NCBI GenBank assembly: GCA_000004695.1
Contig: CM000150.2
Span: 1,440,001 to 1,504,000 of the forward strand
DNA: 64,000 bases
Direction of reading: 5' to 3'
Source of the DNA: Dictyostelium discoideum
Lineage: Eukaryota
Part shown: piece after piece, positions 3,157 to 51,326 of the stretch
How positions within the stretch are numbered: the first letter of the stretch is position 1
Layout: each line of letters begins with the position of its first letter
Notes under the pieces: model-generated
What the model saw: the letters and a program-made list of their open reading frames with translations, nothing else
The model's database searches: none
What the model was told of the DNA's origin: nothing
Program-made: the position numbers and the translations under genes

Positions 3157-4614
3157 ATGGCACAAGTATTTCCTGATGTAATTGAAGAAAAGATTCAAGA
3201 TGATGATAAATTTTTTGGACAAACAAGATTAAAAAACGATGATATAGATTTCAATGATCCAGATAATGTTTTAACAATGAAAAATATTCATAAAACTTAT
3301 TTATTAGGTATTGAAGGTGTACCTGCACTAAGGTTTGTATAAATTATATAAATTTTATAAAAATTAATTAGTGTGCGCTAACATATAAAAAATTATATCA
3401 TTTATTTTCAAAAGAGGTGTTTCAATGGCAATTAAAAGAGGAGAATTTATTTGTATTTTCGGTACATCTGGTGGTGGTAAAACAACAATGTTAAATATTA
3501 TTGGTACAATCGATAAACCTACAAAAGGTGAAATGAAATTATGTGGTAAAAGTAATTATTATTATTATTTTATATATTTTATATATATTAAATAAATACT
3601 AATATTTAATTTTTATTATAATTAAAGCAATTAATCATAAAACAACTGATAAAGATTTAGCATTTTTAAGATTAAGAAATATTGGATTCGTATTTCAAAC
3701 ATTTAATTTATTATCATCATTGACAGCATTGGAGAATGTTGAAATGCCAATGATTTTATTGGGTGAATTATCAGCAAGTGAAAGAAGAGAAAGAGCAATT
3801 TCATTATTAACAAAAGTAGGTATGAAAGATCGTTTAGATCATTTCCCATCCCAACTATCTGGTGGTGAACAACAACGTGTTACAATTGCACGTGCTATTG
3901 CAAATAATCCAGATGTTTTATTATTAGATGAACCAACGTAATGTATATTTTATCATATTATTAATTATTATTATTAATAATTATAAGTATCGCACGAGCG
4001 CTAACTTTAAATTATTTATTTATATATATATATATAAAAATAGTGGTGATTTAGATACAGTAAATACATCAGTGATTATGAAATTGTTAACAGATTTAAA
4101 TAAACAAGAGAATATAACATTAATTATGGTAACACATGATGTTGGTTTAAAAATGTATTCAGATAGAATCATTTGGATGAGAGATGGTAAAATTCAAAGA
4201 ATTGAAACCGTTCAAGAACAATCAAAACGTGAACATTATCAAAAACTATATAAAGAATGCGAATTAATTAATCAAAATCAAAAGAATGGTGTAACTAGTG
4301 TTTTCAAAAATGATGATGATAATAAAAATATTAAAAAGCAAGGTACTTTAACTGAGTTTAGAAGACCAACTGATTATAAATCAATTGCAAGTTATAATAA
4401 TAATAATAGTAATTTAAATAATAATAGTAATAGTAATAGTAATAATAATAGTAATAATAATAATAGTAAAAATTATGCATCATCATCATCATCATCAAGT
4501 GTATTAAATGGAAAATTAAGCCAATCAACTGTAAACAATTCTTCAATTTATAATCATAATAATGATTCTCCATTTTTCAATAGTAATAATAATAATAATA
4601 TCAATAATAATATC

Positions 4615-4705
<91 letters not shown>

Positions 4706-4962
4706 GTAATAGTAATAATAATAATAGTAATAGTAATAATAATAATAATAATACAAAGAGTAATAATAATAATAATAATAATATATTTGATATAGCATCT
4801 TCATCATCATCTTATAGTAATAACAATAATAACAGTAAGAATAATAGTCTTATTGATGATATTTACTTGGATATAAATGAAGGTAGCTCATCAAATTTTT
4901 CAAATAATGATAATTTTAAATCGGTAGATCAAATTACCAATGACCTTAGCCGTATTTTATAA
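3157..4962 (+). CDS. ABC transporter ATP-binding protein, bacterial LolD/MacB-like NBD-only type (abcH-like) with long poly-Asn C-terminal tail; 4 exons: 3157-3332, 3415-3545, 3628-3937, 4044-4962
   Basis: Walker [11 protein letters not shown]-loop FVFQ, signature LSGGEQQRV, Walker B LLLDEPT, and an H-loop MVTHD after splicing (EPT|GDLD). Donors AG|GTTTGT, G|GTAAAA and AC|GTAATG pair with acceptors giving in-frame junctions (R, A, T). Strong similarity by eye to LolD ([26 protein letters not shown]). The C-terminus is an (AAT)n-encoded poly-N stretch. Confidence 0.8.
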
Positions 4963-5228
4963 AAAAAAAAAAAAAGATTTCATAGTAATATTACTAAAAA
5001 TAAAAAAAAATATAAAAATAAAATATATATATAAAAAAAAAAAAAAAAATTATCGTTTATTTGAGCATGTTTAAGAAATGAGATATTGTTTCTTTTCTTT
5101 TTTTTTTTTTTTTTTTTTTCTTTTCTTTTCTTTTTTTTCATATCCATGATTGTCTTAATAATACTTTTAAAAAGTAAAAATAAGTAAAATTGATGCAATT
5201 AACTTTTTTTTTCCTATAATTATCTTTA

Positions 5229-10371: not shown

Positions 10372-10417
<46 letters not shown>

Positions 10418-10676
10418 AGTATTTGTATTTTTAACTGATGAGAACAACATTAACAATTAAAGATTGATATTATTCAAATAAATATATTAGTTTCAAATTA
10501 AAGAATTGTACAATAAGAATAATAACTATTTTACTTTTTTTTTTTTTAGAATTTTATTTTATTTTTTTTTTTTTATTTTTTTTTTTTTATTTTTTTTTTT
10601 TTATAGGTGAATGAAAGAAATAGATAATTTAAACATGATTTAGTGATGAATGATGAATTATTATTAGCAGATTAAT

Positions 10677-12718
10677 TTATTTTTTTGATTTTTTTGATTT
10701 TTTTTCTTCTGGTTCTTCATCTCTATCCTTTCTCTTTTTATCTTCTTTTGATGATGATTTCTTTTCTTTCTTTTCTTCTTTTTCTTTTTTATCTTCTTTT
10801 GATGATGATTTCTTTTCTTTCTTTTCCTTCTTTTCTTCTTTTTCTTCTTTCTTTTCTTTCTTTTCTTTTTTATCTTTCTTTTCTTCTTTCTCTTCTTTCT
10901 TTTCTTTCTTTTCTTTCTTTTCTTCTTTGGCGACTGGAGTTTCTTCAGTCTTTTCTTTCTTATCTTTCTTTTCTTTCTTTTCTTCTTTTTTATCTTCTTT
11001 TTCTTCTTTCTTTTCTTTTTTATCTTTCTTTTCTTTCTTTTCCTCCTTTTCTTTCTTTTCCTCTTTGGCAACTGGAGTTTCTTCTTTCTTTGATTTCTTT
11101 TCTTTCTTCTCCTCTTTGGCAACTGGAGTTTCTTCTTTCTTTGATTTCTTTGATTTTTTTGATTTTTCTTCTTCAGAGGAATCAGAATCGGATGATGAGT
11201 CAGAGTCAGATGATGAGGCTTCTTCCATTTTAACGTCTTGTTTCTCTTGTTTAATTGATGATTCTTTTGAGGATTTAGTGGCAACATCTCTGGTGGTATT
11301 TGTAGTGGCAGATTTAGTATGATCATATTTGGCGACATTACCAGATTTCTCTGGTTTGACGGCATTTAATGATTTTCTAACTTCACGACCTTCAATAGCA
11401 GCGGCTCTACGATCAACAGCACCTTTGTAAGCGATACCATAACTTGTATCACTGACTTCACAGAGAGCATCGAAACGAGCGGATAAAGCAGCTTTAGCGG
11501 CGAGAACTCTAGACATTTTACCTTTGTTCTTTAATGAAGCTTCACCGACGATCTTGGCATTATAGATGAGACCATATTTTGGAGTGTTATGTTTAGTTTT
11601 AAGGGCACGGAAGAGGGCTTTTTCAGCACCGAGAATTTGAATGGTTGAAGCTGGATATTTGGCTAAATTCATCAATGAACCAGCACGACAAATTAAACGA
11701 GCACCAACGATTTCACCAACTAAAATTGTAAGATTTGGAGCGATAGCTTCCATACGAGATTTAAGGTACTCGGTTAATTCGGTGTGGTAAGCTTGAATGG
11801 AAAGGAATTGATCGCAAAGGGCAAAGATATGATCGAGATCCTCTGGTGAAATTTCAGTACCCATAGAGATTTGAGCGGCTTCTTTAACTTCTTCGGCAAC
11901 TTCCTCTGGGAGGATATCGGTGAAATCGGTATCGACAGCAGACTTTCTGTTACCCATTGCCTTGATGGCGTTGGCGTATTGGGTATGATTGGTGATCAAT
12001 TTACCCAACTCTGGGAAATGCCATCCGTACCATTCACGAGCTCTCATTGCGTAAATGTTGATTTCGGTAGTCAAATCATCCAATAATGAGATGGCTTGAA
12101 CGATCATTGTATCGACCTTATCTGGTGAGAACTTTAATTTATATCTACTGTATGAATGTGATAAACCAATTGACATGGCATTCAAATCTTGTTCATTTGC
12201 ATTGACCAATGATTTCAATTGTAAACGAATACCTCTAATCAACTCTTGAGTAGTATCATCACATAAAACTTTGATATTTAATGCGTCCTTGATTGCATTA
12301 CCAAATTTACTATCACTAACAATTAATTGTTCATTTAATTTCTCACTAACAACATTCTTTTTTAAAAAGTTTGATAATGATTCTGGAACTTTACATTCTG
12401 CAATTGCAGTTTGTGCTTCTAATGCATCTAATGTACCATCAAATTTATAAAATTTCTTTAATGAAACACTATTTTTTTAAAAAAAATAAATAAATAAAAT
12501 TTATTAATATTTATTTTTAAAATTTAAAAAAATAATAATAATAATTGTTGAAAAAAAAAAAAAAAATAAAAATAAAAAAAAAAAAAAACTTACAATGAGG
12601 AAGCTTTTTCTGGGGTTTCGAAAAAGTTATTGATGTCAACTGGTTTTGATTTCATTTTACCTTCATCCAAAACCTTGAATAAGGCAAAACCTGCTGATGT
12701 TTCAAATAATACTAACAT
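10677..12718 (-). CDS. nop58: Nucleolar protein NOP58 (box C/D snoRNP core protein); 2 exons: 12718-12594, 12468-10677
   Basis: Exon 1 MLVLFETSAGFALFKVLDEGK matches the NOP58 N-terminus (MLVLFETSxGYAIFKV). Main ORF 10677..12242 carries the NOSIC/Nop domain (AMRAREWYGWHFPELGK, ILGAEKALFRALKTKHNTPKYGLIYNA). The C-terminal KKE/D repeat tail is typical of Nop58. Donor TT|GTAAGT at 12593 and acceptor AATAG before 12468 are in phase (TT+T = Phe). Confidence 0.9.
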
Positions 12719-41368: not shown

Positions 41369-43750
41369 ATGAATTTTAAAATTATATATTTTATAATTTT
41401 ATCAATAATAGTTTCATATTTTTCAAAGATTGGTATTGATTATTATTTTAGTAGTGATGAAATTAAAGAGAGATATTCATTATTTGAATATGTTGTAAAT
41501 GATCAAATAATAAAATTTGGTAGTAATAGAGATAGAGATCTTTTTGATAGATCACATTATAATGAAGAAGTATTTTATAATATAAAGATATCAAAAGAAG
41601 TTCAAGATGCACTTAGATATGGTAAACCAATCGTATCATTAGAGTCTACAATTATTTCACATGGTATGCCATTCCCACAGAATTATGAAACTGCATTGGA
41701 GGTTGAATCAATCGTTAGATCATATGGTGTTATTCCAGCAACTATTGCAATTTTAAATGGTACAATTCATATTGGATTAACCGAGAAAGAGATTCACTAT
41801 TTAGCAACGGTTGGTAAGGATGCAATTAAAACGTCACGTCGTGACATTGCCATGGTGACATCGATGGGTAAGACAGGATCTACCACGGTTTCAGCAACTA
41901 TTTTATTCTCAAATTTAGTGGGTATCAAAGTGTTTGTCACTGGTGGATTGGGTGGTGTTCATAGGGGTGCCGAAACAAGTTTAGATGTGAGTGCAGATTT
42001 AACAGAGTTGGGTAAGAATGGTGTTATGGTAGTTTCAGCAGGTGTAAAGAGTATATTGGATATTGGAAAGACTTTGGAATATTTAGAGACTCAAGGTGTT
42101 ACAGTGGTGACTTTTGGTTCTGATGAATTCCCAGCATTCTTTACAAAACATTCAGGTGTAAAGACACCAAATCGTTTGGATACCGTTGACCAATGTGCAA
42201 AACTTCTCTACTCAAATCAGTTACTTCAATTAAAGAGTGGCATGGTCGTTGCCGTGCCACCACGTGATAATGAACATTCTGAGCTCATTGACCGTGCAAT
42301 CAAAGAATCAATTGAACAATCAAAAGTAGATGGTATTTTGGGTAAAGATATTACACCCTATCTCTTAAAGAAAGTAAATGAAAAAACTGGTGGTAAATCA
42401 TTAGAATCAAATATTGAATTGGTTAAAAACAATGCTAGAATTGGTTCACAAATTTCTAAACATTATTATAATTTATTAAAAAATAAACAATCACCAACTA
42501 GTAGCACTACTACCATTAAAGGTGATGAATTAGTTTTCAACTATTTTGACCAACGAGTAAATACTTTTCTTAGAAATTATTTTAAAACATTATCAGCAGA
42601 GACTTTGTTATTAAATGGTCCAAATAAATTAAAAGGTTTAAATGGACCAAAACCAAATAAACAATTGGCTGATAATCATATTGAGTATGATATTGTGGTG
42701 GTTGGTGGTGCAGTGATCGATATGATTTCTCATCCATTTAAAGAGAGTGGTTTCCAAATGGAAACTTCAAATCCGGGTGCTATTTCAATTAAAATGGGTG
42801 GCGTTGGTCGTAATGTTGCAGAGGTATTATCAAGATTACAAATGAATTCATTGTTTATTAGTTTGGTTGGTGACGATGTTCACTCTGGTCTATTGATGGA
42901 ATCATTTCAAAAAATGAATTTATCATCCAATGGTGTTGGTATCAAGGTTGGTAGTAAAACTGCAATTTACAATGCAATTATGAATGATCGTGGTGATTTG
43001 GCAGTTGCAATAGCTCAAATGGATATTTTCGATGAGATTACACCTTCCTACATTTCAAAATTTGATTTAACCTCAAGTAAACTTTTAGTTTTCGATGGTA
43101 ATATTCCAATTGAATCAATGACTTATTTAGCTCAACTATCAAGATCAAAAGGTATTAAACTTTGGTTCGAACCAACAAGTGTCTATAAATCTTCAAAAAT
43201 CGTTGAATCATTCATTTTATCTTCAATTACCTATATTTCACCAAATAGAGATGAATTAATTAAAATTTCAAATGAAATTATTAAAAAAGGTTTAATTAAA
43301 TTTGAAAATATTATAAATAATGATATAAATGGTAATTAATTAAAATTTATTTATTTATTTAGATTTATTTATTATATATTTAATTTTTATTAATATTATT
43401 TATTTATTTATTTAGATTTAGAAAATATTAAAAAGCATAGTATAATTTTAATTGAATCTGGTATAAAATATATTATTACAAAGATGGGATCAAAAGGAGT
43501 ATTATTAGCTTATAAAAAAGATGATGGAGAATTTAAATTTGAATTATTTTCAGCACCAGAAGTACCAGATAACAAGATTGTAGATGTAACAGGTGCTGGT
43601 GATAGTTTAGTTGGTTGTACAATTTATTCAATATTACTTGGTCATAATTTAACAACTGCAATCCCCCAATATGGTACCCCTTGTGCAAAAGAAAGTTTAT
43701 TATCAACAAATCCAGTTTCACCAAATATTAAAATTTCTTTATTTAAATAA
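41369..43750 (+). CDS. Bifunctional pseudouridine-5'-phosphate glycosidase (PsuG/YeiN-like) + pseudouridine kinase (PsuK, pfkB family) fusion; 2 exons: 41369-43331, 43416-43750
   Basis: The N-terminal half matches the PsuG family (PIVSLESTIISHGMPFPQN, GGLGGVHRGAETSLDVSADLTEL). The C-terminal half is a pfkB carbohydrate kinase (VVGGAVIDM..., GGVGRNVAEVL, and the second-exon motif DVTGAGDS). Donor G|GTAATT and acceptor TTTAG|AT are in phase (G+AT = Asp). Confidence 0.8.
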
Positions 43751-43799
43751 ATATTTATTAAATTTTTTATTATTTTTTTCTTTAAAACATTTTTTAAAA

Positions 43800-43870
43800 A
43801 ACGTCTAATTGAACTTTACCATTTTTACCACCATAATATGATAAAGAAACACCACCATTGAATTTTTAGT
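43800..43870 (-). pseudogene. Short fragment of an MRH-domain paralog (remnant)
   Basis: The reverse complement encodes ...NGGVSLSYYGGKNGKVQLD..., a near-identical internal segment of the 45131..45859 gene, with no flanking ORF. Confidence 0.4.
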
Positions 43871-44099
43871 AATTTCACATTAGTCAAAACTATTTGAACA
43901 AGTTTAATCTGAACATTTTAATGAAAAAAAAAAAAAAAAAAAACAAAAAAACAAAAAAACAAAAAAACAAAAAAAAAAAGATCTAATTTAATTTATTAAT
44001 AATTTTAAAATTTTTTATTTATTTATTTAAAAAACAAATTCACATTCCAAGTCAATTGAGTTACTTAAAAGTTTTTGAAAATTCTTTCTATGTAAAACT

Positions 44100-44700
44100 T
44101 AAACCTTTATTATTAATAGTGCATTAATGTTTTGGACTTGTAGGACTTGGTGTTGGAGTTGGTGTTGGTGTTAGTGTTGGAGTTGGTGTTGAATTAATTG
44201 GACAAGCATACATTGAACTCATTGAACATTTATATATTGGAACTAATGAATTAATTCTGATACAGTGATTGGTATTTAAAATAGCTGATGGTTCACAGTA
44301 AAAGTCTAATTTAACTGTACCATTTTTACTACCATTATATGATAAGGAAACACCATTTGAAATTTGAGTAATTTCACTTTTTTCAATATAAGTCATTGGT
44401 AAACAGTTTCATTTTTATAAAAATAAAGGCAACTTTGAACATTGGTTAAATTGTCCGTTTCTTTAAACTATTGCATTTTGGACAATATCCACAAATATTG
44501 AAAAAAAGGAAGAGCATTAATTCTCCATAAGGAATGTCGGAGATTGATCGTGTATAATAATAATCTCCTTTTTTAGTCAATGGTGATAAATCGATTAAAC
44601 CTTGAGCTGTGTTTAATTTACAAACATTATTATTACAATATCCAAATGAAAAATTTAATAAATAACTTAAAGTTAAAAAAATAATAATTTATTCATTTTT
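44100..44700 (-). pseudogene. Decayed MRH-domain paralog (frameshifted/interrupted copy)
   Basis: ORF 44124..44396 covers only the C-terminal half of the domain (EKSEITQISNGVSLSYNGSKNGTVKLDFYCEPSAILNTNHCIRINSLVPIYKCSMSSMYACPINSTPTPT...). Recognisable N-terminal pieces (MNKLLFFLTLSYLLNFSFGY..., LIDLSPLTKK, FNICGY) lie upstream in other frames with stops. Confidence 0.55.
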
Positions 44701-45130
44701 TTTATATTTATTGAATGATGAAGAAAAAAAAATTGTATAAATTGATAATTAAAATACTTAAAAATTTATTTAAAAAAAGATTAAATAAAAAATTAATTAA
44801 AATTCTGTTTTTTAAACACTTACTCCAATTGGTTTTTTCGATTGTGATAGTTTTTTTTTTTTTTTTAATTTTGACTAAAAAAGGTAAGGTATTTTTGTGA
44901 ATCATTATTAATATTAAATTATATTACATCTTTGTTTTTGTTCACTTGGGTTTTTTATTGTTTTTGTTTTTTTTTTTTTTTTTTTATTTTTAAAAAATAT
45001 AATAAACATTTATTTACTGATAAAAATTGTTCATAAACACCAAATAAAAGAAAAAAAAAAATACCAAAGTAAACAAAAAAAAAAGATGTAGTATAATTAA
45101 TAAATAATTTTAAATTATTTATTTATTTAT

Positions 45131-45859
45131 TTAAAAAACAAATTCACATTCCACGCCAATTGAATTACATAAAATTTTTTGAGAATTCTTTTTATAATTA
45201 CAAGTAATTGAACTATTTGATGTAAAACTTAAACCTTCATTATTAATAATACATTTATGTTTTAGACCTTCTGGTGTTGGTGTTGAGCTTAAGGTTGGTG
45301 TTGGTGTTGAGCTTAAGGTTGGTGTTGGTGTTGAGGTTGGTGTTGAGGTTGTAGTTGGATTAATTGGACAAGCATGCATTGAATACATTGAACATTGATA
45401 TAATGGAACATATGTATTAATTCTAATACAATCATAGATGTTTAAAGTTTTAGCGGATGGATCGCAGTATATGTCTAATTGAGTTGTACCATTTTTACCA
45501 CCATAATATGATAAAGAAACACCATTTGAAATTTGAGTAATTTCACTTTTATCAGTATAACCCATTGGTGGAGCAGTACCATCTTGTGGATAAAAAGCAC
45601 AACTTTGAGCATTGGTTAAATAGTTGTTACTTCCTAAACTATTACATCTTTGTGTATATCCACAAATATTGAAAAATAGTGAGAATGATTTTGGTGGATA
45701 ATCAATGAATGATCCTGAAAAATAACCACCATTTGGTAAAGTCAATGGTGATAAATCAATTAGACCTTGCTTGGTGTTTAATTTACACACATTATTACTA
45801 TAACCAAATGAAAAATTAAATAAATAACCTATAGTTAAAAAAATAATTATTTTATTCAT
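45131..45859 (-). CDS. Secreted MRH (mannose-6-phosphate receptor homology) domain protein with Thr/Pro-rich linker and small Cys-rich C-terminal module (intact copy, 242 aa)
   Basis: Signal peptide MNKIIIFLTIGYLFNFSFG. The MRH-like Cys framework and motifs are present: CKLNTKQGLIDLSPL, Y.FSLFFNICG, CNSLG, SCAFY, VSLSYYGG, LDIYCD, CIRIN, Y.CSMYSMHACP. A TPTPTLSSTPTPT linker and a C-terminal CIINNEGLSFTSNSSITCNYKKNSQKILCNSIGVECEFVF follow. The MRH call is from the motif pattern, not a search. Confidence 0.7.
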   Translation of the reverse strand: MNKIIIFLTIGYLFNFSFGYSNNVCKLNTKQGLIDLSPLTLPNGGYFSGSFIDYPPKSFSLFFNICGYTQRCNSLGSNNYLTNAQSCAFYPQDGTAPPMGYTDKSEITQISNGVSLSYYGGKNGTTQLDIYCDPSAKTLNIYDCIRINTYVPLYQCSMYSMHACPINPTTTSTPTSTPTPTLSSTPTPTLSSTPTPEGLKHKCIINNEGLSFTSNSSITCNYKKNSQKILCNSIGVECEFVF

Positions 45860-46654
45860 TTTTTTAATATTTATTGGGTGATGAAGAAAAAAAAAGTAAA
45901 GAAAAAAAAAAAGAAAAAAATAAAAGTTTAAAAAAAAAAAAAAAAAAAATTTCCCGAGTCACTAGGAAAAAATTAAAAAAAAAGAAAATTATTGTTTTAA
46001 TTTAATTCTTAAGAAAATTTTTTTGAAATTTTTATGGGTGGTGGATATTGGAAAAAAAGGAAAGAAGTGGATGAAAATATATTAAAAAATAAATAGAAAT
46101 AATAAAAAATAAAAAATGAAAAAAAGATTAAATAAACAATTAAAATTCATAAAAAATAAATTAAAAAAGATTAAATAATTAATTAAATAATATAATAATT
46201 AAATATTATTATTATTATTTTTCTCTTTAATTATTTTTTTGTTCACTTGTTATTATTTTCGTGTTTGGTTGTAATTATTTTTGTTTGAGGGGTGATTATC
46301 ATTTTTGTGTTTGGTTAAAATTATTGGAGGGTTATATATATATTTTTTTTTATTTTTTTTATTTTTTTATTTTTTTAAATCACTTTTCAAAAAAATTTAT
46401 TAAAATAAATAGAAATTAATAAAATAATATAAAAAAATTATTAAAAAAGATTTTTTTTTTTTTTTTTCTTTAAATTGATTGTGTTTAATTGGTATTTTTG
46501 ATTGTGAATAGTTTTTTTTTTTTTTTGTTTTAAAAATTATTAAAATAAAAAATAAAAAAAAAATAAAAAAGATAAAATAAAAAAATTAAAATCCAAAAAA
46601 AGATTAAAATAAATATTTAAAATTAAATAATATTTTATTTTAATGATTGGTTTA

Positions 46655-46800
46655 ATGATTAATTGGACATTAAGCATACATTGAACATTTATATATACTG
46701 GAACTACTGAATTAATTATAATACAGTCATAGATGTTTAAGCTTTTAGCGGATGAATCACAGTATAGTTACACCAGTATTACCATAATACGATAAGGAAA
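46655..46800 (-). pseudogene. MRH-paralog fragment (remnant)
   Basis: The reverse complement reads ...NIYDCIIINSVVPVYKCSMYA..., homologous to the C-terminal part of the MRH domain and truncated on both sides. Confidence 0.45.
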
Positions 46801-47040
46801 CATCATTTGAAAATTTTTGGGTGATAGATATTGGAAATTTTTCTGACATTTTATTTGAAATGAAACTAATTTTATAAATTAATAGAAAAAAAAAAAAATA
46901 AAAAAGATTAAAAAAAAATTAAAATCCTTTAAAAAATAAAAAAAAAAAAGACTAAATGAATAATTAATTATTTATTATTTTTATTATATTTCTCTTGGTT
47001 GTCATTATTTTGTTTTTAAACGAATGGCTGAGAATTTGGA

Positions 47041-47541
47041 TTAATTGGGGCAAGCATACATTGAATACATTGAACATTTAAATACTGGAACTACTGAATT
47101 AATTCTAATACAGTCATAGATGTTTAAACTTTTAGAGGATGGATCACAGAGTATGTCTAATTGAGTTACACCAGTATTACTACCATAATATGATAAAGAA
47201 ACACCATTTGAAATTTGAGTAATTTCACTTTTATCAGTATAACCCATTGGTGGAGCAGTACCATCTTGTGGATAAAAAGCACAACTTTGAGCATTGGTAA
47301 AAAAGTTGTTACCTCCTAAACTATTACATTTCTTTGCATATCCACAAATATTGAAAAGTAGCGAGAATGATTTTGGTGGATAATCAAAGAATGATCCTGC
47401 ATAGTAACCACCATATGGTAAGGTTAATGGTGATAAATCAATTAAACCTTGAGCTGTGTTCAATTGACAAACATGATTACTATAACCAAATGAAAAATTT
47501 AACAAATAGCTAAAAGTTAAAAAAATAATTATTTTATTCAT
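47041..47541 (-). CDS. Secreted MRH-domain protein, short paralog (166 aa, MRH domain only)
   Basis: About 85% identical by eye to the N-terminal 165 aa of the 45131..45859 gene, including the signal peptide and all MRH Cys positions. It ends ...SMYSMYACPN-stop, with no linker or C-terminal module. Confidence 0.6.
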   Translation of the reverse strand: MNKIIIFLTFSYLLNFSFGYSNHVCQLNTAQGLIDLSPLTLPYGGYYAGSFFDYPPKSFSLLFNICGYAKKCNSLGGNNFFTNAQSCAFYPQDGTAPPMGYTDKSEITQISNGVSLSYYGSNTGVTQLDILCDPSSKSLNIYDCIRINSVVPVFKCSMYSMYACPN

Positions 47542-48239
47542 TTTATAATATTTAAAAATGTATTTTTTTTATTGAATAATGAAGAAAAAGAAAAGAATAA
47601 ATAAGAAAAAAAAATAGAAAAAAAAAAAGAAAAAAGAAAAAAAAATAGAAAAAAAAAAATAAAAAAAAAAATAAAAAATATATATTTCCCGATTCCCTAG
47701 GACAAAATCAATCAAAATAGAAAGTCAAAAGGAGATTTTTTTTTTTTTTTATTTATTTTATTTTCATTTATTTTGTCCTAGGAAATTGGGTGGTTTGATA
47801 CAATGATTGGAAATTACAAATCAATTTTGTACGATTTTTTTTTTTTTGAAAAGATTTTTTTGTTTTGTTTTTCTGGTAATTTTATTTTTTTTTTTTTTTA
47901 ATTTTTTTTAATTTTTTTTAATTTTTTTTTTTAATATTTGTGAGGACTTTTGGAAATTGAAAAGTAAAAAAAGGTGTTTTGGGTTGGTAAAAAAAATAAA
48001 AAAAAAATAAAAAAAATAATGTTGCCCCAGGCAAACCCAAAACACTTTTTTTTTGACACCTAAATTTTTATTATTCACAAATTTTGGAATTTCTAATATT
48101 TTATTATTTTATTAAAAAAAATAAAAAAAAAGAGAAAAAATAAATAAAATTGAATTCAAAATTGAAAATGTTGTAGCCGAACTTGGATTAGGAGGAGTTG
48201 TGGGAACTAAAGTTTGACAGTAAACTTCAAATTGGTCAA

Positions 48240-49005
48240 TCATGAATCCAGTACTATTAAAACATTCCAATTTAATATTTTCAAAAGCATTTGAACAAGT
48301 TTTATCTGTAAATAAAAACAGTTGAATTTCAAAAGTATTTTGAAATCTGTTGGTAAAATTGAAATTCTTTCAAAATCACAAAGATTCATACAATTTCCTA
48401 CTGTTACATTATAACCACTTGTTGGGCATAGATTACCAAAAAATTTGAAACTATTATAAATAATATTTGAAGGATTTGAGGTTGGATTTGGAGAAGGGGT
48501 AAAAGTTTGAGTTTGAGTTTGAGTTGGAGTAGTAGAAGGGGTAATAGTTGGAGAAGAAGTAGGTGAGATAATTGGACAAGCATACATTGAAATCATTGAG
48601 CATCTATATAAAGGAACTACTCTATTTATTCTAATACAATCATAGATGTTCAATGATGTGGCGTGGGTCACAATAAATTTTAAATTGAGCTGTACCATTT
48701 TTACCACCATAATATGATAATGAAACACCGTTTTTAATTTCAAACAGTTCACTTTTGTCAATATAACCCATTGGTGGAGCAGTGTCATCATTTTGATAAA
48801 ATGCACAACTTTCTGCGTTGGTGTTTTTAGTATTATTACCTAAGGAATTACATCTCGTTGCATATCCACAAATATTGAAAAGTAGTGAGAATGATTTTGG
48901 TGGATAATCAAAGAATGATCCAGCATAATAACCACCATTTGGTAGAGTCAATGGTGATAAATCAATCAATCCACCAATGTTTGCAAACATTATTATCATA
49001 CCCAA
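48240..49005 (-). pseudogene. MRH-domain paralog with frameshift and lost start (pseudogene)
   Basis: Two overlapping ORFs in different frames (48640..49005 and 48240..48806) together cover the MRH domain, a linker (TSSPTITPSTTPTQTQTQTFTPSPNPTS) and a C-terminal Cys module. There is no signal-peptide start. The reading frame breaks near 48700. Confidence 0.55.
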
Positions 49006-49511
49006 AAGAATTATTTACAAAGTAAAAAAATGTAATAATAATAAATAATTTAAACATTTGATTTAATATAGCTTTTTTTTTACTAATTATTATTATTTAA
49101 AACACTTTCAAATAAAAATAAATAAATAAAAAAAAAAGATTAAATATTTTTTTATGTATTTCAAAAAAAAAAAAAAAATGGTTATAAAAAAAAAAAACCA
49201 AAACAAAAAAAGTCTTTTCTAAAGATTTTGTATCGCCATTGCTATTGGTGATTTTTTTTTTAAAAATTTTATTTTTAATTATTTTTTTTTTATTTTTTTT
49301 TTATTTTAATGGACAGGCAATCGACCAAACTGGAGTTTAATAAAAAAAAATATAAAAAGTTTGTGGTAACTTTTTGGAATTAAAGCAAATTGTGGCAGCA
49401 TAGTAAAAGTGGAAAGAAAAAAAAAAAAATTAAAGCTGGAAAAAAAAAAAAAGAAGAAAAAGATAATTTTATTTTTTATAGTTTTTTTTTTTTTTTTTTT
49501 TTACTTTAAAC

Positions 49512-51326
49512 TTATAATATATTAATATTATGATCTTTTAAATGAGTTTGAATGATTAAATCAGAATTCTCTAAAAATCTATTATTTGAATAGATTACTT
49601 TTGGTTGATAATAAACTTCACGACCAAATTGTTTCTTACAAAAGATTTCACCATGTTGATTCTTTAAAAACATTTGAGTTGTATCAGGATTTTCAAGAAA
49701 AGTATCATGAACTACAGTACAAGTGTTTATGAAATTCTCTTCATTTGTTGTTGAAACACCACCAGATACAGCCATACTAGTTAGAGAATCATATGATAAG
49801 AAATGAAATCCATTCGATGGTGAAATGGTTGTACTGTGTAATATTGTTGGTGGTGAAGGTCTATTGTCAAACGATTGCTCTAAATCTTTTGATAGTTGTA
49901 ATATACGATTATTATGATTCAATCTAATCTTATTAAATTCTAAATGAATTGTAAATTGTGTATTTGGATTTATATCTGTTAATAATGCAATAGTTAAATC
50001 TGTCCAATAAATTATTAATAATTTAACTGCAATATATTCTGTTTCATTCTTTTTATCATTATTATTATTATTATTATTATCATTATCATTGTTATTATTA
50101 TTGTTATAATTATTATAATTATTATAACTATTATTTGATTGATGATGATGATGATGATGATGTTGTTGTACATTATTTATATTAAAAACATTATTTTGAT
50201 TTTGATTTATATCAGTATTAATATGTTTATTTTTTAAATTTGTATATTCCTGTGGTGATATATAAACAGTTTGATGATAATCTTCAGGAATGTAAAGTGG
50301 TGGTGCATTACCATTTGAATTATTTGAATTGTTTAAATTTGAACCACCAGAATTTAAACCACCAATATTTGAAGAACTATCTTTACCTAAACCAGAGGAT
50401 GAACTTGACATGTTCAATGGTGATTGTAATGGTGATTGTGGTTGTGATGATTGTTGTTGTAATATTAATGGATTAGTTGCATTCTTTCTACTATATTCAA
50501 TTTTATCCAATATGAATTTAGTTGTAGTTTTCAATTCGAAATTACTATATAATACTGTATTTCTAAAGAATATTGCACCTCCTAAATGATCATTTTGTGA
50601 TATACTATCAATTAAATGTGATGCTTGTATAAAAAATCTTTGTGATCTCTAATAATAATAATAGTATTAGTATTATACACCATATGTATATTATACATAA
50701 TAATAATAATATTTACATTTGGTAATGGTGTATATGGTAATGGATTAAAAGGATTCATTATATTTTTATATATATTGTTTGTTACAATTTGCATTAATTC
50801 ATTTAATTCGAATTCGAGTTTCTTTTTTTCTTTCTTTTAAAATTTTGATATTAAAAAAAAAAAAAAAAAAGTATTACGATTAGTATATACGTATATGTTT
50901 TTAAAATTATAAATTATATATACTTACAGAAATTGTACCTAAAGTTTTATAAAAAAAAGTTAAAGCTTTATAAATATGATTTAAATGATTTGAAACTGTT
51001 GATGGTGCAATATCGATATCAGTGCATAATACCATTGTATAACGATCAACTAATTTTAATGATAGGACATGTCTTTCTAATGTGATATAATCGATTGGTG
51101 ATGAAGTGAAGAAATCACCACTAATACCTGACATTGAATGAATACCACCACCAAAATTAACTTTCATCATATTATTAACATGAGGAATATCTGGATAAAA
51201 GTAAATTAATTTCTCATTTTGATCTGCACTCTCATCATTTTCAAATTCTTCATAAATGCAAAATAATATTTCATCACTCTTTAAAAAATGTAATGGTGTT
51301 AATGGTGTTTCGCTGTAATGTGCCAT
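49512..51326 (-). CDS. CCZ1-like (CHiPS/longin-domain) protein, putative Mon1-Ccz1 GEF subunit, with poly-N/poly-H insertion; 2 exons: 51326-50928, 50648-49512
   Basis: The N-terminus ...DQNEKLIYFYPDIPHVNNMMKVNFGGGIHSMSGI parallels CCZ1 (EENKILFYHPNEVEKNEKIRNVGLCEAIVQF). Donor TCT|GTAAGT at 50927 and acceptor TTATTAG before 50648 are in phase 0 (279-nt intron). The C-terminus FLKNQHGEIFCKKQFGREVYYQ parallels CCZ1 DYWVVGKKSDRRELYVIL. The family assignment is from recalled alignment and is moderate. Confidence 0.55.

Follow-up and report, generated by a model that had tools for sequence, protein, structure and literature searches.

A lineage-restricted tandem cluster of genes for divergent, probably secreted MRH-domain proteins in Dictyostelium

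In domains homologous to mannose 6-phosphate receptors (MRH domains) that are of the CI-MPR type, the cysteines pair as 1-2, 3-4, 5-7, and 6-8. A tetrad of glutamine, arginine, glutamate, and tyrosine that hydrogen-bonds mannose is conserved in the MRH family and is required for the sugar site (PMC9388126). Because only 4 of the 15 MRH domains of CI-MPR bind carbohydrate (PMC7481795), the fold is not in itself proof of lectin activity. Domain 11 of IGF2R, which binds IGF2, and the other CI-MPR domains without sugar binding offer a precedent for the domain described here, which is encoded by a group of paralogous genes on chromosome 1 of Dictyostelium discoideum AX4. The genes lie on the minus strand at 43.8-49.1 kb of a 64-kb stretch (contig CM000150.2, positions 1,440,001 to 1,504,000) that we refer to as the window. 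We consider it likely that they form a lineage-restricted tandem cluster of intronless genes that encode proteins with a signal-peptide-like leader and a divergent MRH domain, that the cluster is subject to turnover, and that the canonical pocket of the domain is no longer used.

A tblastn search of the window with the 242-amino-acid product of DDB_G0268434 returns four gene-sized and two short matches, and no further match elsewhere in the 64 kb. The gene-sized matches lie at 45134-45859 (100% identity, E 5e-160), 47047-47541 (82% identity, E 8e-91), 48664-48972 (79% identity, E 1e-50, with extra pieces in two other frames), and 44030-44688 (split into three pieces, each in a different frame, E 2e-49); the short ones lie at 46672-46767 (E 3e-7) and 43797-43865 (E 2e-5). 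DNA repeat families have start-to-start spacings of ~1166-1171, 1682, and 1524 nucleotides (nt), copy-to-copy DNA identities of 76-91%, and identities of 89-93% over 71-76 nt between the fragments and the genes. These data confirm that the repeated family is real, far above chance, and located where an earlier reading of this DNA by eye (the original prediction) had placed it. The tandem family on the minus strand and its two fragments stand as predicted, and the count of three gene-like copies is corrected to four.

Two of the copies are intact. DDB_G0268434 (45131..45859, minus strand, 242 amino acids, 100% identical to P0001) is composed of the leader MNKIIIFLTIGYLFNFSFG, a domain of ~147 amino acids with eight cysteines, a Thr/Pro/Ser linker, and a four-cysteine tail. 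DDB_G0268122 (47041..47541, minus strand, 166 amino acids, matching P0004 as read from the open reading frame [ORF]) has a signal-peptide-like leader and an MRH-like domain and nothing more, and is a naturally short form. A six-cysteine module, which was predicted to follow the linker in all full copies, is restricted to the copy type at 48-49 kb. A resemblance of the four-cysteine tail to a cysteine-rich region of Tieghemostelium P0016, noted by eye, finds no support from BLASTP, which matched only low-complexity sequence between them, and a match to P0011 is likewise spurious, reflecting Thr/Pro low complexity. All copies begin with a hydrophobic leader whose last residues are SFG, so that secretion of the family products, also part of the original prediction, is plausible. 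The UniRef label of both intact genes is "MRH domain-containing protein"; the genes already carried this automatic label and were thus partly annotated before.

The assignment of the domain to the MRH family is solid. A family profile built from 11 small-paralog domains, searched exhaustively against 1.84e9 representative sequences, directly matches a 2055-amino-acid CI-MPR-like protein (E 2.2e-4) that is a 15-repeat CI-MPR by Pfam (863 bits) and has a cluster mate annotated as Limulus CI-MPR-like. The profile also matches dictyostelid multi-repeat proteins from Polysphondylium violaceum and metagenomes with E values of 1e-22 to 9e-45, and the 7-repeat relative P0012 passes the Pfam cut-offs for CIMR and ATG27. 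Profile-profile comparison using hhalign supports similarity of the family to the CI-MPR-like protein with a probability of 90% and to three sugar-binding CI-MPR domains with a probability of 87%, and a widened profile reaches CI-MPR at 7.8e-76; a second word-index search with the widened alignment adds only one new protein. Structure prediction with AlphaFold2 from 26 single-repeat sequences yields a flattened β-barrel of about 150 residues, the MRH fold, with a predicted local distance difference test (pLDDT) score of 89.8 and a predicted template modeling (pTM) score of 0.85. Foldseek ranks 1-45 for this model are all MRH-domain proteins, with CD-MPR the best (7e-8). The profile match, the hhalign scores, the model with its structural neighbors, and the UniRef label together bear out the MRH homology that had been proposed from the letters alone.

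In contrast to CI-MPR and CD-MPR, the P-type lectins, each cluster protein has a single domain behind a leader, and its ORF shows neither a cytosolic tail nor a hydrophobic stretch in its interior. The last element of an ORF is the domain itself, a small cysteine-containing tail, or a short hydrophobic GPI-like (glycosylphosphatidylinositol-like) tail, and in none of them can a transmembrane segment with a cytosolic tail behind it be seen; the type I membrane topology with a cytosolic sorting tail that defines a P-type lectin proper is not found. The domain itself also differs from that of the receptors. Two independent alignments, one using a hidden Markov model (HMM) and one profile-profile, place Ala69 at the canonical glutamine (SCA vs CQ) and Gly105 at the canonical arginine in the small paralogs. 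Cysteines 1, 2, 3, 4, 6, and 8 align with the canonical framework, cysteines 5 and 7, which would pair next to the glutamine and arginine sites, are absent, and new cysteines (C125 and C137) are present in a remodeled C-terminal third, such that one canonical disulfide of the receptor domains would be replaced by a new, predicted C125-C137 pair. The glutamate position is occupied by Thr, Ser, Lys, Ala, or Gly and the tyrosine position by Tyr, Phe, or His, an assignment that comes from the HMM alignment only and is less certain. The tetrad of a sugar-binding MRH lectin, a group that comprises the MPRs, OS-9, GIIbeta, and GNPTG, is accordingly not found, and canonical binding of mannose or mannose 6-phosphate by the small paralogs appears unlikely from their sequences. 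The putative glycan binding of the original prediction is unsupported, with Ala and Gly in the place of Gln and Arg and with a remodeled C-terminal third, where Glu and Tyr would be expected. Given the loss of both mannose-holding residues and of the site-bracing disulfide, we posit that the products most likely act as binding modules, either extracellular or displayed on the surface, that bypass the canonical mannose/mannose 6-phosphate pocket.

The two other gene-sized copies are pseudogenes. The copy that we term psiC (48112..49057, minus strand, delimited by ortholog alignment and tblastn) is of a long type composed of a signal peptide, an MRH-like domain, a Thr/Pro linker, the six-cysteine module, and a hydrophobic tail resembling a GPI signal. 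An intact ortholog occupies the same place in a second D. discoideum assembly, L001 (GCA_054859385.1, 8001-9106), where it reads as a single continuous ORF of 352 amino acids and is ~97% identical to psiC outside indels. Relative to this ortholog, psiC has lost a total of 8 nt at ~48984/48977, just past the signal peptide, 2 nt at 48663/48662, and 1 nt at 48345/48344, along with 87 nt, in frame, from the linker at 48554/48553; in a tblastn search with P0007 the psiC match is split over four frame segments. Because the interrupted sequence is continuous coding sequence in the L001 ortholog, the frame breaks are not introns. The gene model annotated at 8001-9106 in L001 has 334 amino acids and looks wrong; its intron cuts out the hydrophobic GPI-signal-like tail of the continuous ORF.

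The second pseudogene, psiA (44027..44696, minus strand, delimited by alignment to DDB_G0268434 and tblastn), is of the DDB_G0268434 type; in that alignment it has lost 1 nt of codon 5 and 26 nt of its tail, and it also carries several more indels and, at 44124-44126, an in-frame TAA. Its dN/dS, the ratio of nonsynonymous to synonymous substitution rates, is 0.85 (not significant), and tblastn detects no counterpart in L001 or in the D. cf. discoideum assembly L003. It is much older than psiC, an old wreck. The longest psiA ORF (44124-44396, minus strand) is the AX4 gene DDB_G0268120, a "hypothetical protein" of 90 amino acids (P0015); the model begins at an internal methionine and has neither the leader nor the domain's N-terminal half. 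Alignment to the intact ortholog or paralog rules out introns as the cause of the frame breaks in either copy. The original prediction held the decaying copies to be frameshifted or to lack a start: the frameshifts are there, within the first 5-30 codons of both, and the starts are present, psiC having an ATG and a signal-peptide-like beginning at 49057 and psiA at 44696. The decay itself stands, the lesions having no intron explanation and recurring letter for letter in a further assembly, L002 (GCA_054883475.1), which shares 99.6% identity with the window across 11 kb and contains all six family segments as exact substrings. In L002 the identical psiC sequence is annotated as split genes of 116 and 118 amino acids. 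Both copies therefore carry reproducible frame-disrupting lesions that splicing does not remove.

Two orphan fragments complete the cluster, both on the minus strand. Fragment 2 (46657..46860; DNA repeat family D11, tblastn, and blastn) is an incomplete copy of the DDB_G0268122 domain's 3' half with frame-broken translations, and is 93% identical to 47079-47149 over 71 nt. D. cf. discoideum has a fragment that resembles it in placement (L003, 10451-10579), and no counterpart is present in L001. Fragment 1 (43797..43915; blastn-short and DNA repeat family D12) is a mosaic of a 76-nt domain piece (43803-43878), which blastn-short matches to 45473-45546 at 89% identity (E 2e-19), and 20 nt of a psiC-like six-cysteine module (43892-43911), which it matches to 48289-48308 at 95% identity (E 1.5e-4).

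The cluster is bounded by the same flanking genes, an Intu_longin_1-type gene and an Indigoidine_A/PfkB fusion gene, in six genomes, and the content between them varies. Domain copies number 3-5 per genome, with lineage-specific duplicates and independent truncations. The AX4 lineage has two intact-looking copies, two pseudogenes, and two fragments; the second D. discoideum strain (L001) and D. firmibasis (L005) each have three intact-looking copies and no other pieces; D. cf. discoideum (L003) has three intact-looking copies and one fragment; and the two D. citrinum assemblies (L004 and L006) have five intact-looking copies each, one of which is truncated after the domain in L004 and one of which has an in-frame deletion in the domain in L006. 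In the compared genomes each copy forms one ORF that includes a leader of its own. In a neighbor-joining tree the long type forms one orthologous clade, and the other types include species-specific duplicates. The C-terminal ends fall into five layouts, which include no extension, a Thr/Pro stalk with a four-cysteine tail, a stalk with the six-cysteine module and a GPI-signal-like tail, and a stalk with a GPI-signal-like tail. The family is lineage-restricted and was detected in four Dictyostelium taxa alone, namely D. discoideum, D. cf. discoideum, D. citrinum, and D. firmibasis. The differences in copy number and architecture at a syntenic locus are a textbook pattern of birth and death, which the original prediction had proposed from a single genome, in a weakly constrained family.

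In our reading the cluster turns over through tandem duplication, partial duplication, deletion, and pseudogenization between two conserved single-copy genes, probably by unequal crossing-over, and C-terminal ends are interchangeable among family members. The AX4 lineage has kept two intact genes, has recently lost the long, probably GPI-anchored member represented by psiC, and still contains the old wreck psiA and two scraps. In D. citrinum L004 the long member (4445-5089) is truncated before the six-cysteine module and has 214 amino acids, vs 382 in L006 (6125-7273), which parallels the loss in AX4; the in-frame deletion in L006 removes ~10 amino acids inside the domain of the copy at 10406-11131. 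A 328-amino-acid D. firmibasis model (L005, 8001-9392) and a 464-amino-acid D. citrinum model (L006, 9261-11131) look wrong as well, each fusing two adjacent paralogs although both have an ATG, a leader, and a stop of their own. L001, although labeled D. discoideum, has a coding synonymous divergence (dS) of ~0.08 from AX4 and surrounding blocks that are ~83-95% identical, and seems divergent for a single species.

Several observations weigh against our reading of the cluster and lend themselves to other explanations. [quoted passage not shown] The narrow small-paralog profile has no match among the Protein Data Bank (PDB) sequences, AlphaFold with the shallow 11-sequence alignment returns an unusable model (pLDDT 38), and the confident model depends on an alignment that includes the multi-repeat relatives. 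One could thus regard the domain as a chance cysteine-rich resemblance to MRH; however, every significant match beyond the family and low-complexity Thr/Pro, whether in sequence or structure, is an MRH protein, none of the searches placed the domain in another fold family, and we give this explanation almost no credence. It is more of a challenge to ask whether the intact products are genuine lectins that recognize mannose-type or phosphomannosyl N-glycans through the canonical pocket, as their MRH fold, the tyrosine or phenylalanine aligned with the canonical tyrosine, and the tetrad residues of the multi-repeat relatives would allow. The glutamate and tyrosine positions have no reliable alignment, and a modified sugar site may be present. 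Nevertheless, all small paralogs have Ala for Gln and Gly for Arg, residues on which the sugar site reportedly depends (PMC9388126), and lack the Cys5-Cys7 pair that braces it, and we consider canonical lectin activity unlikely.

The pseudogenes raise the separate question of whether they are artefacts, either of sequencing error in AT-rich, homopolymer-rich DNA or of splicing or frameshifting into intact ORFs in a genome whose genes commonly contain short introns. The identity of all segments to L002 speaks against sequencing error, provided that L002 was sequenced independently of AX4. The losses of 8, 2, and 1 nt fall within continuous coding sequence of the psiC ortholog, leaving no intron to excise, and psiA adds its in-frame stop and 26-nt deletion; an artefact is very improbable, and no pseudogene was found to splice into an intact ORF. 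A broader alternative is that the whole cluster is drifting to loss in AX4 and that the intact genes are non-functional and merely unbroken so far. Half of the four copies are already dead, there is no literature on DDB_G0268434 or DDB_G0268122 (the sole Dictyostelium "MRH domain" paper concerns another gene, DDB_G0283243), and dN/dS (omega) of DDB_G0268122 against its L001 ortholog is 0.78, indistinguishable from neutrality. For DDB_G0268434, however, omega against the L001 ortholog is 0.29 (p=0.02), indicating purifying selection, and its architecture is found in all four species examined; likewise, 166-amino-acid orthologs of DDB_G0268122 are retained in two other genomes, so that this form is intact in three. 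The neighboring PfkB-family gene is strongly constrained, with an omega of 0.06 against L001 at an equal dS of ~0.08. We assign drift of the entire cluster a low probability and favor a cluster in turnover that retains two genes for divergent MRH proteins. Overall, the original prediction is supported, with the exception of the glycan binding that it implied.

Some features of the surrounding sequence deserve mention. The 18-nt motif CCTAG[G/T]GA[A/C]TCGGGAAAT occurs at 47684-47701 and 45949-45966 (minus strand), ~105-160 nt upstream of the ATG in each of the two intact genes; neither pseudogene has it. It is also present in the near-identical L002, a variant with three mismatches lies upstream of the 166-amino-acid gene in L003, and it is absent from the other species compared. 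We refrain from calling it a regulatory element, the 3-mismatch form in L003 being the only one outside the AX4-lineage assemblies. On one side of the cluster the Indigoidine_A and PfkB-family fusion gene (41369-43750, plus strand) has an apparent short intron at ~43340-43483. The upstream neighbor (49512-50534, minus strand) contains long homopolymer runs of Asn, Gln, and His, as is typical of Dictyostelium, and is part of the ~550-amino-acid Intu_longin_1-type gene that bounds the cluster in other genomes. G+C content in the window ranges from 17 to 31%, and ARAGORN finds no tRNA genes across the 64 kb.

The closest relatives outside the family are the multi-repeat dictyostelid MRH proteins (P. 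violaceum CYY_005925 and CYY_007853 and the metagenomic P0012), whose repeats are 24-31% identical to the family domain and share its IDLSPL and QSC motifs. These proteins have 4-7 tandem repeats each (seven in P0012) vs the single domain of the family, and their aligned repeats keep the canonical cysteines, Gln, Arg, and Tyr, with Glu identified by sequence reading. More broadly, P0012, P0013, P0014, and P0017 are dictyostelid proteins with 2-7 tandem MRH repeats encoded outside the window. On the basis of their sequences, we regard the dictyostelid multi-repeat MRH proteins as candidate CI-MPR-like lectins of social amoebae. No receptor is known for the phosphomannosylated lysosomal enzymes of Dictyostelium, and how the amoeba uses these enzymes is an old question to which the multi-repeat proteins are relevant.

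The Dictyostelium surface glycoproteins PsA and gp80/csaA have a Pro/Thr-rich, O-glycosylated stalk and a GPI anchor. The long type of the cluster has a like layout of a globular N-terminal domain, a Thr/Pro stalk, and a hydrophobic C-terminal signal; its globular domain is unrelated to theirs and its GPI anchoring is predicted from sequence. It is tempting to see in the cluster a rapidly evolving group of MRH-fold proteins, secreted or GPI-anchored, in which the pocket now serves a non-mannose ligand in cell-cell, matrix, or prey recognition, such that loss of the long member would be phenotypically relevant between strains, but we are cautious and regard this as a long shot. The value of the locus is mainly one of annotation: DDB_G0268120 is an ORF inside a pseudogene, gene models in newer assemblies fuse neighboring paralogs, and a long member that is dead in AX4 is intact in other isolates. 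This is ordinary gene-family turnover and does not overturn current understanding. The cluster nonetheless shows on a small scale how an MRH fold has shed the residues that bind mannose and come to sit on a mucin-like stalk, and it may serve as a modest lead on the non-lectin uses of this fold.

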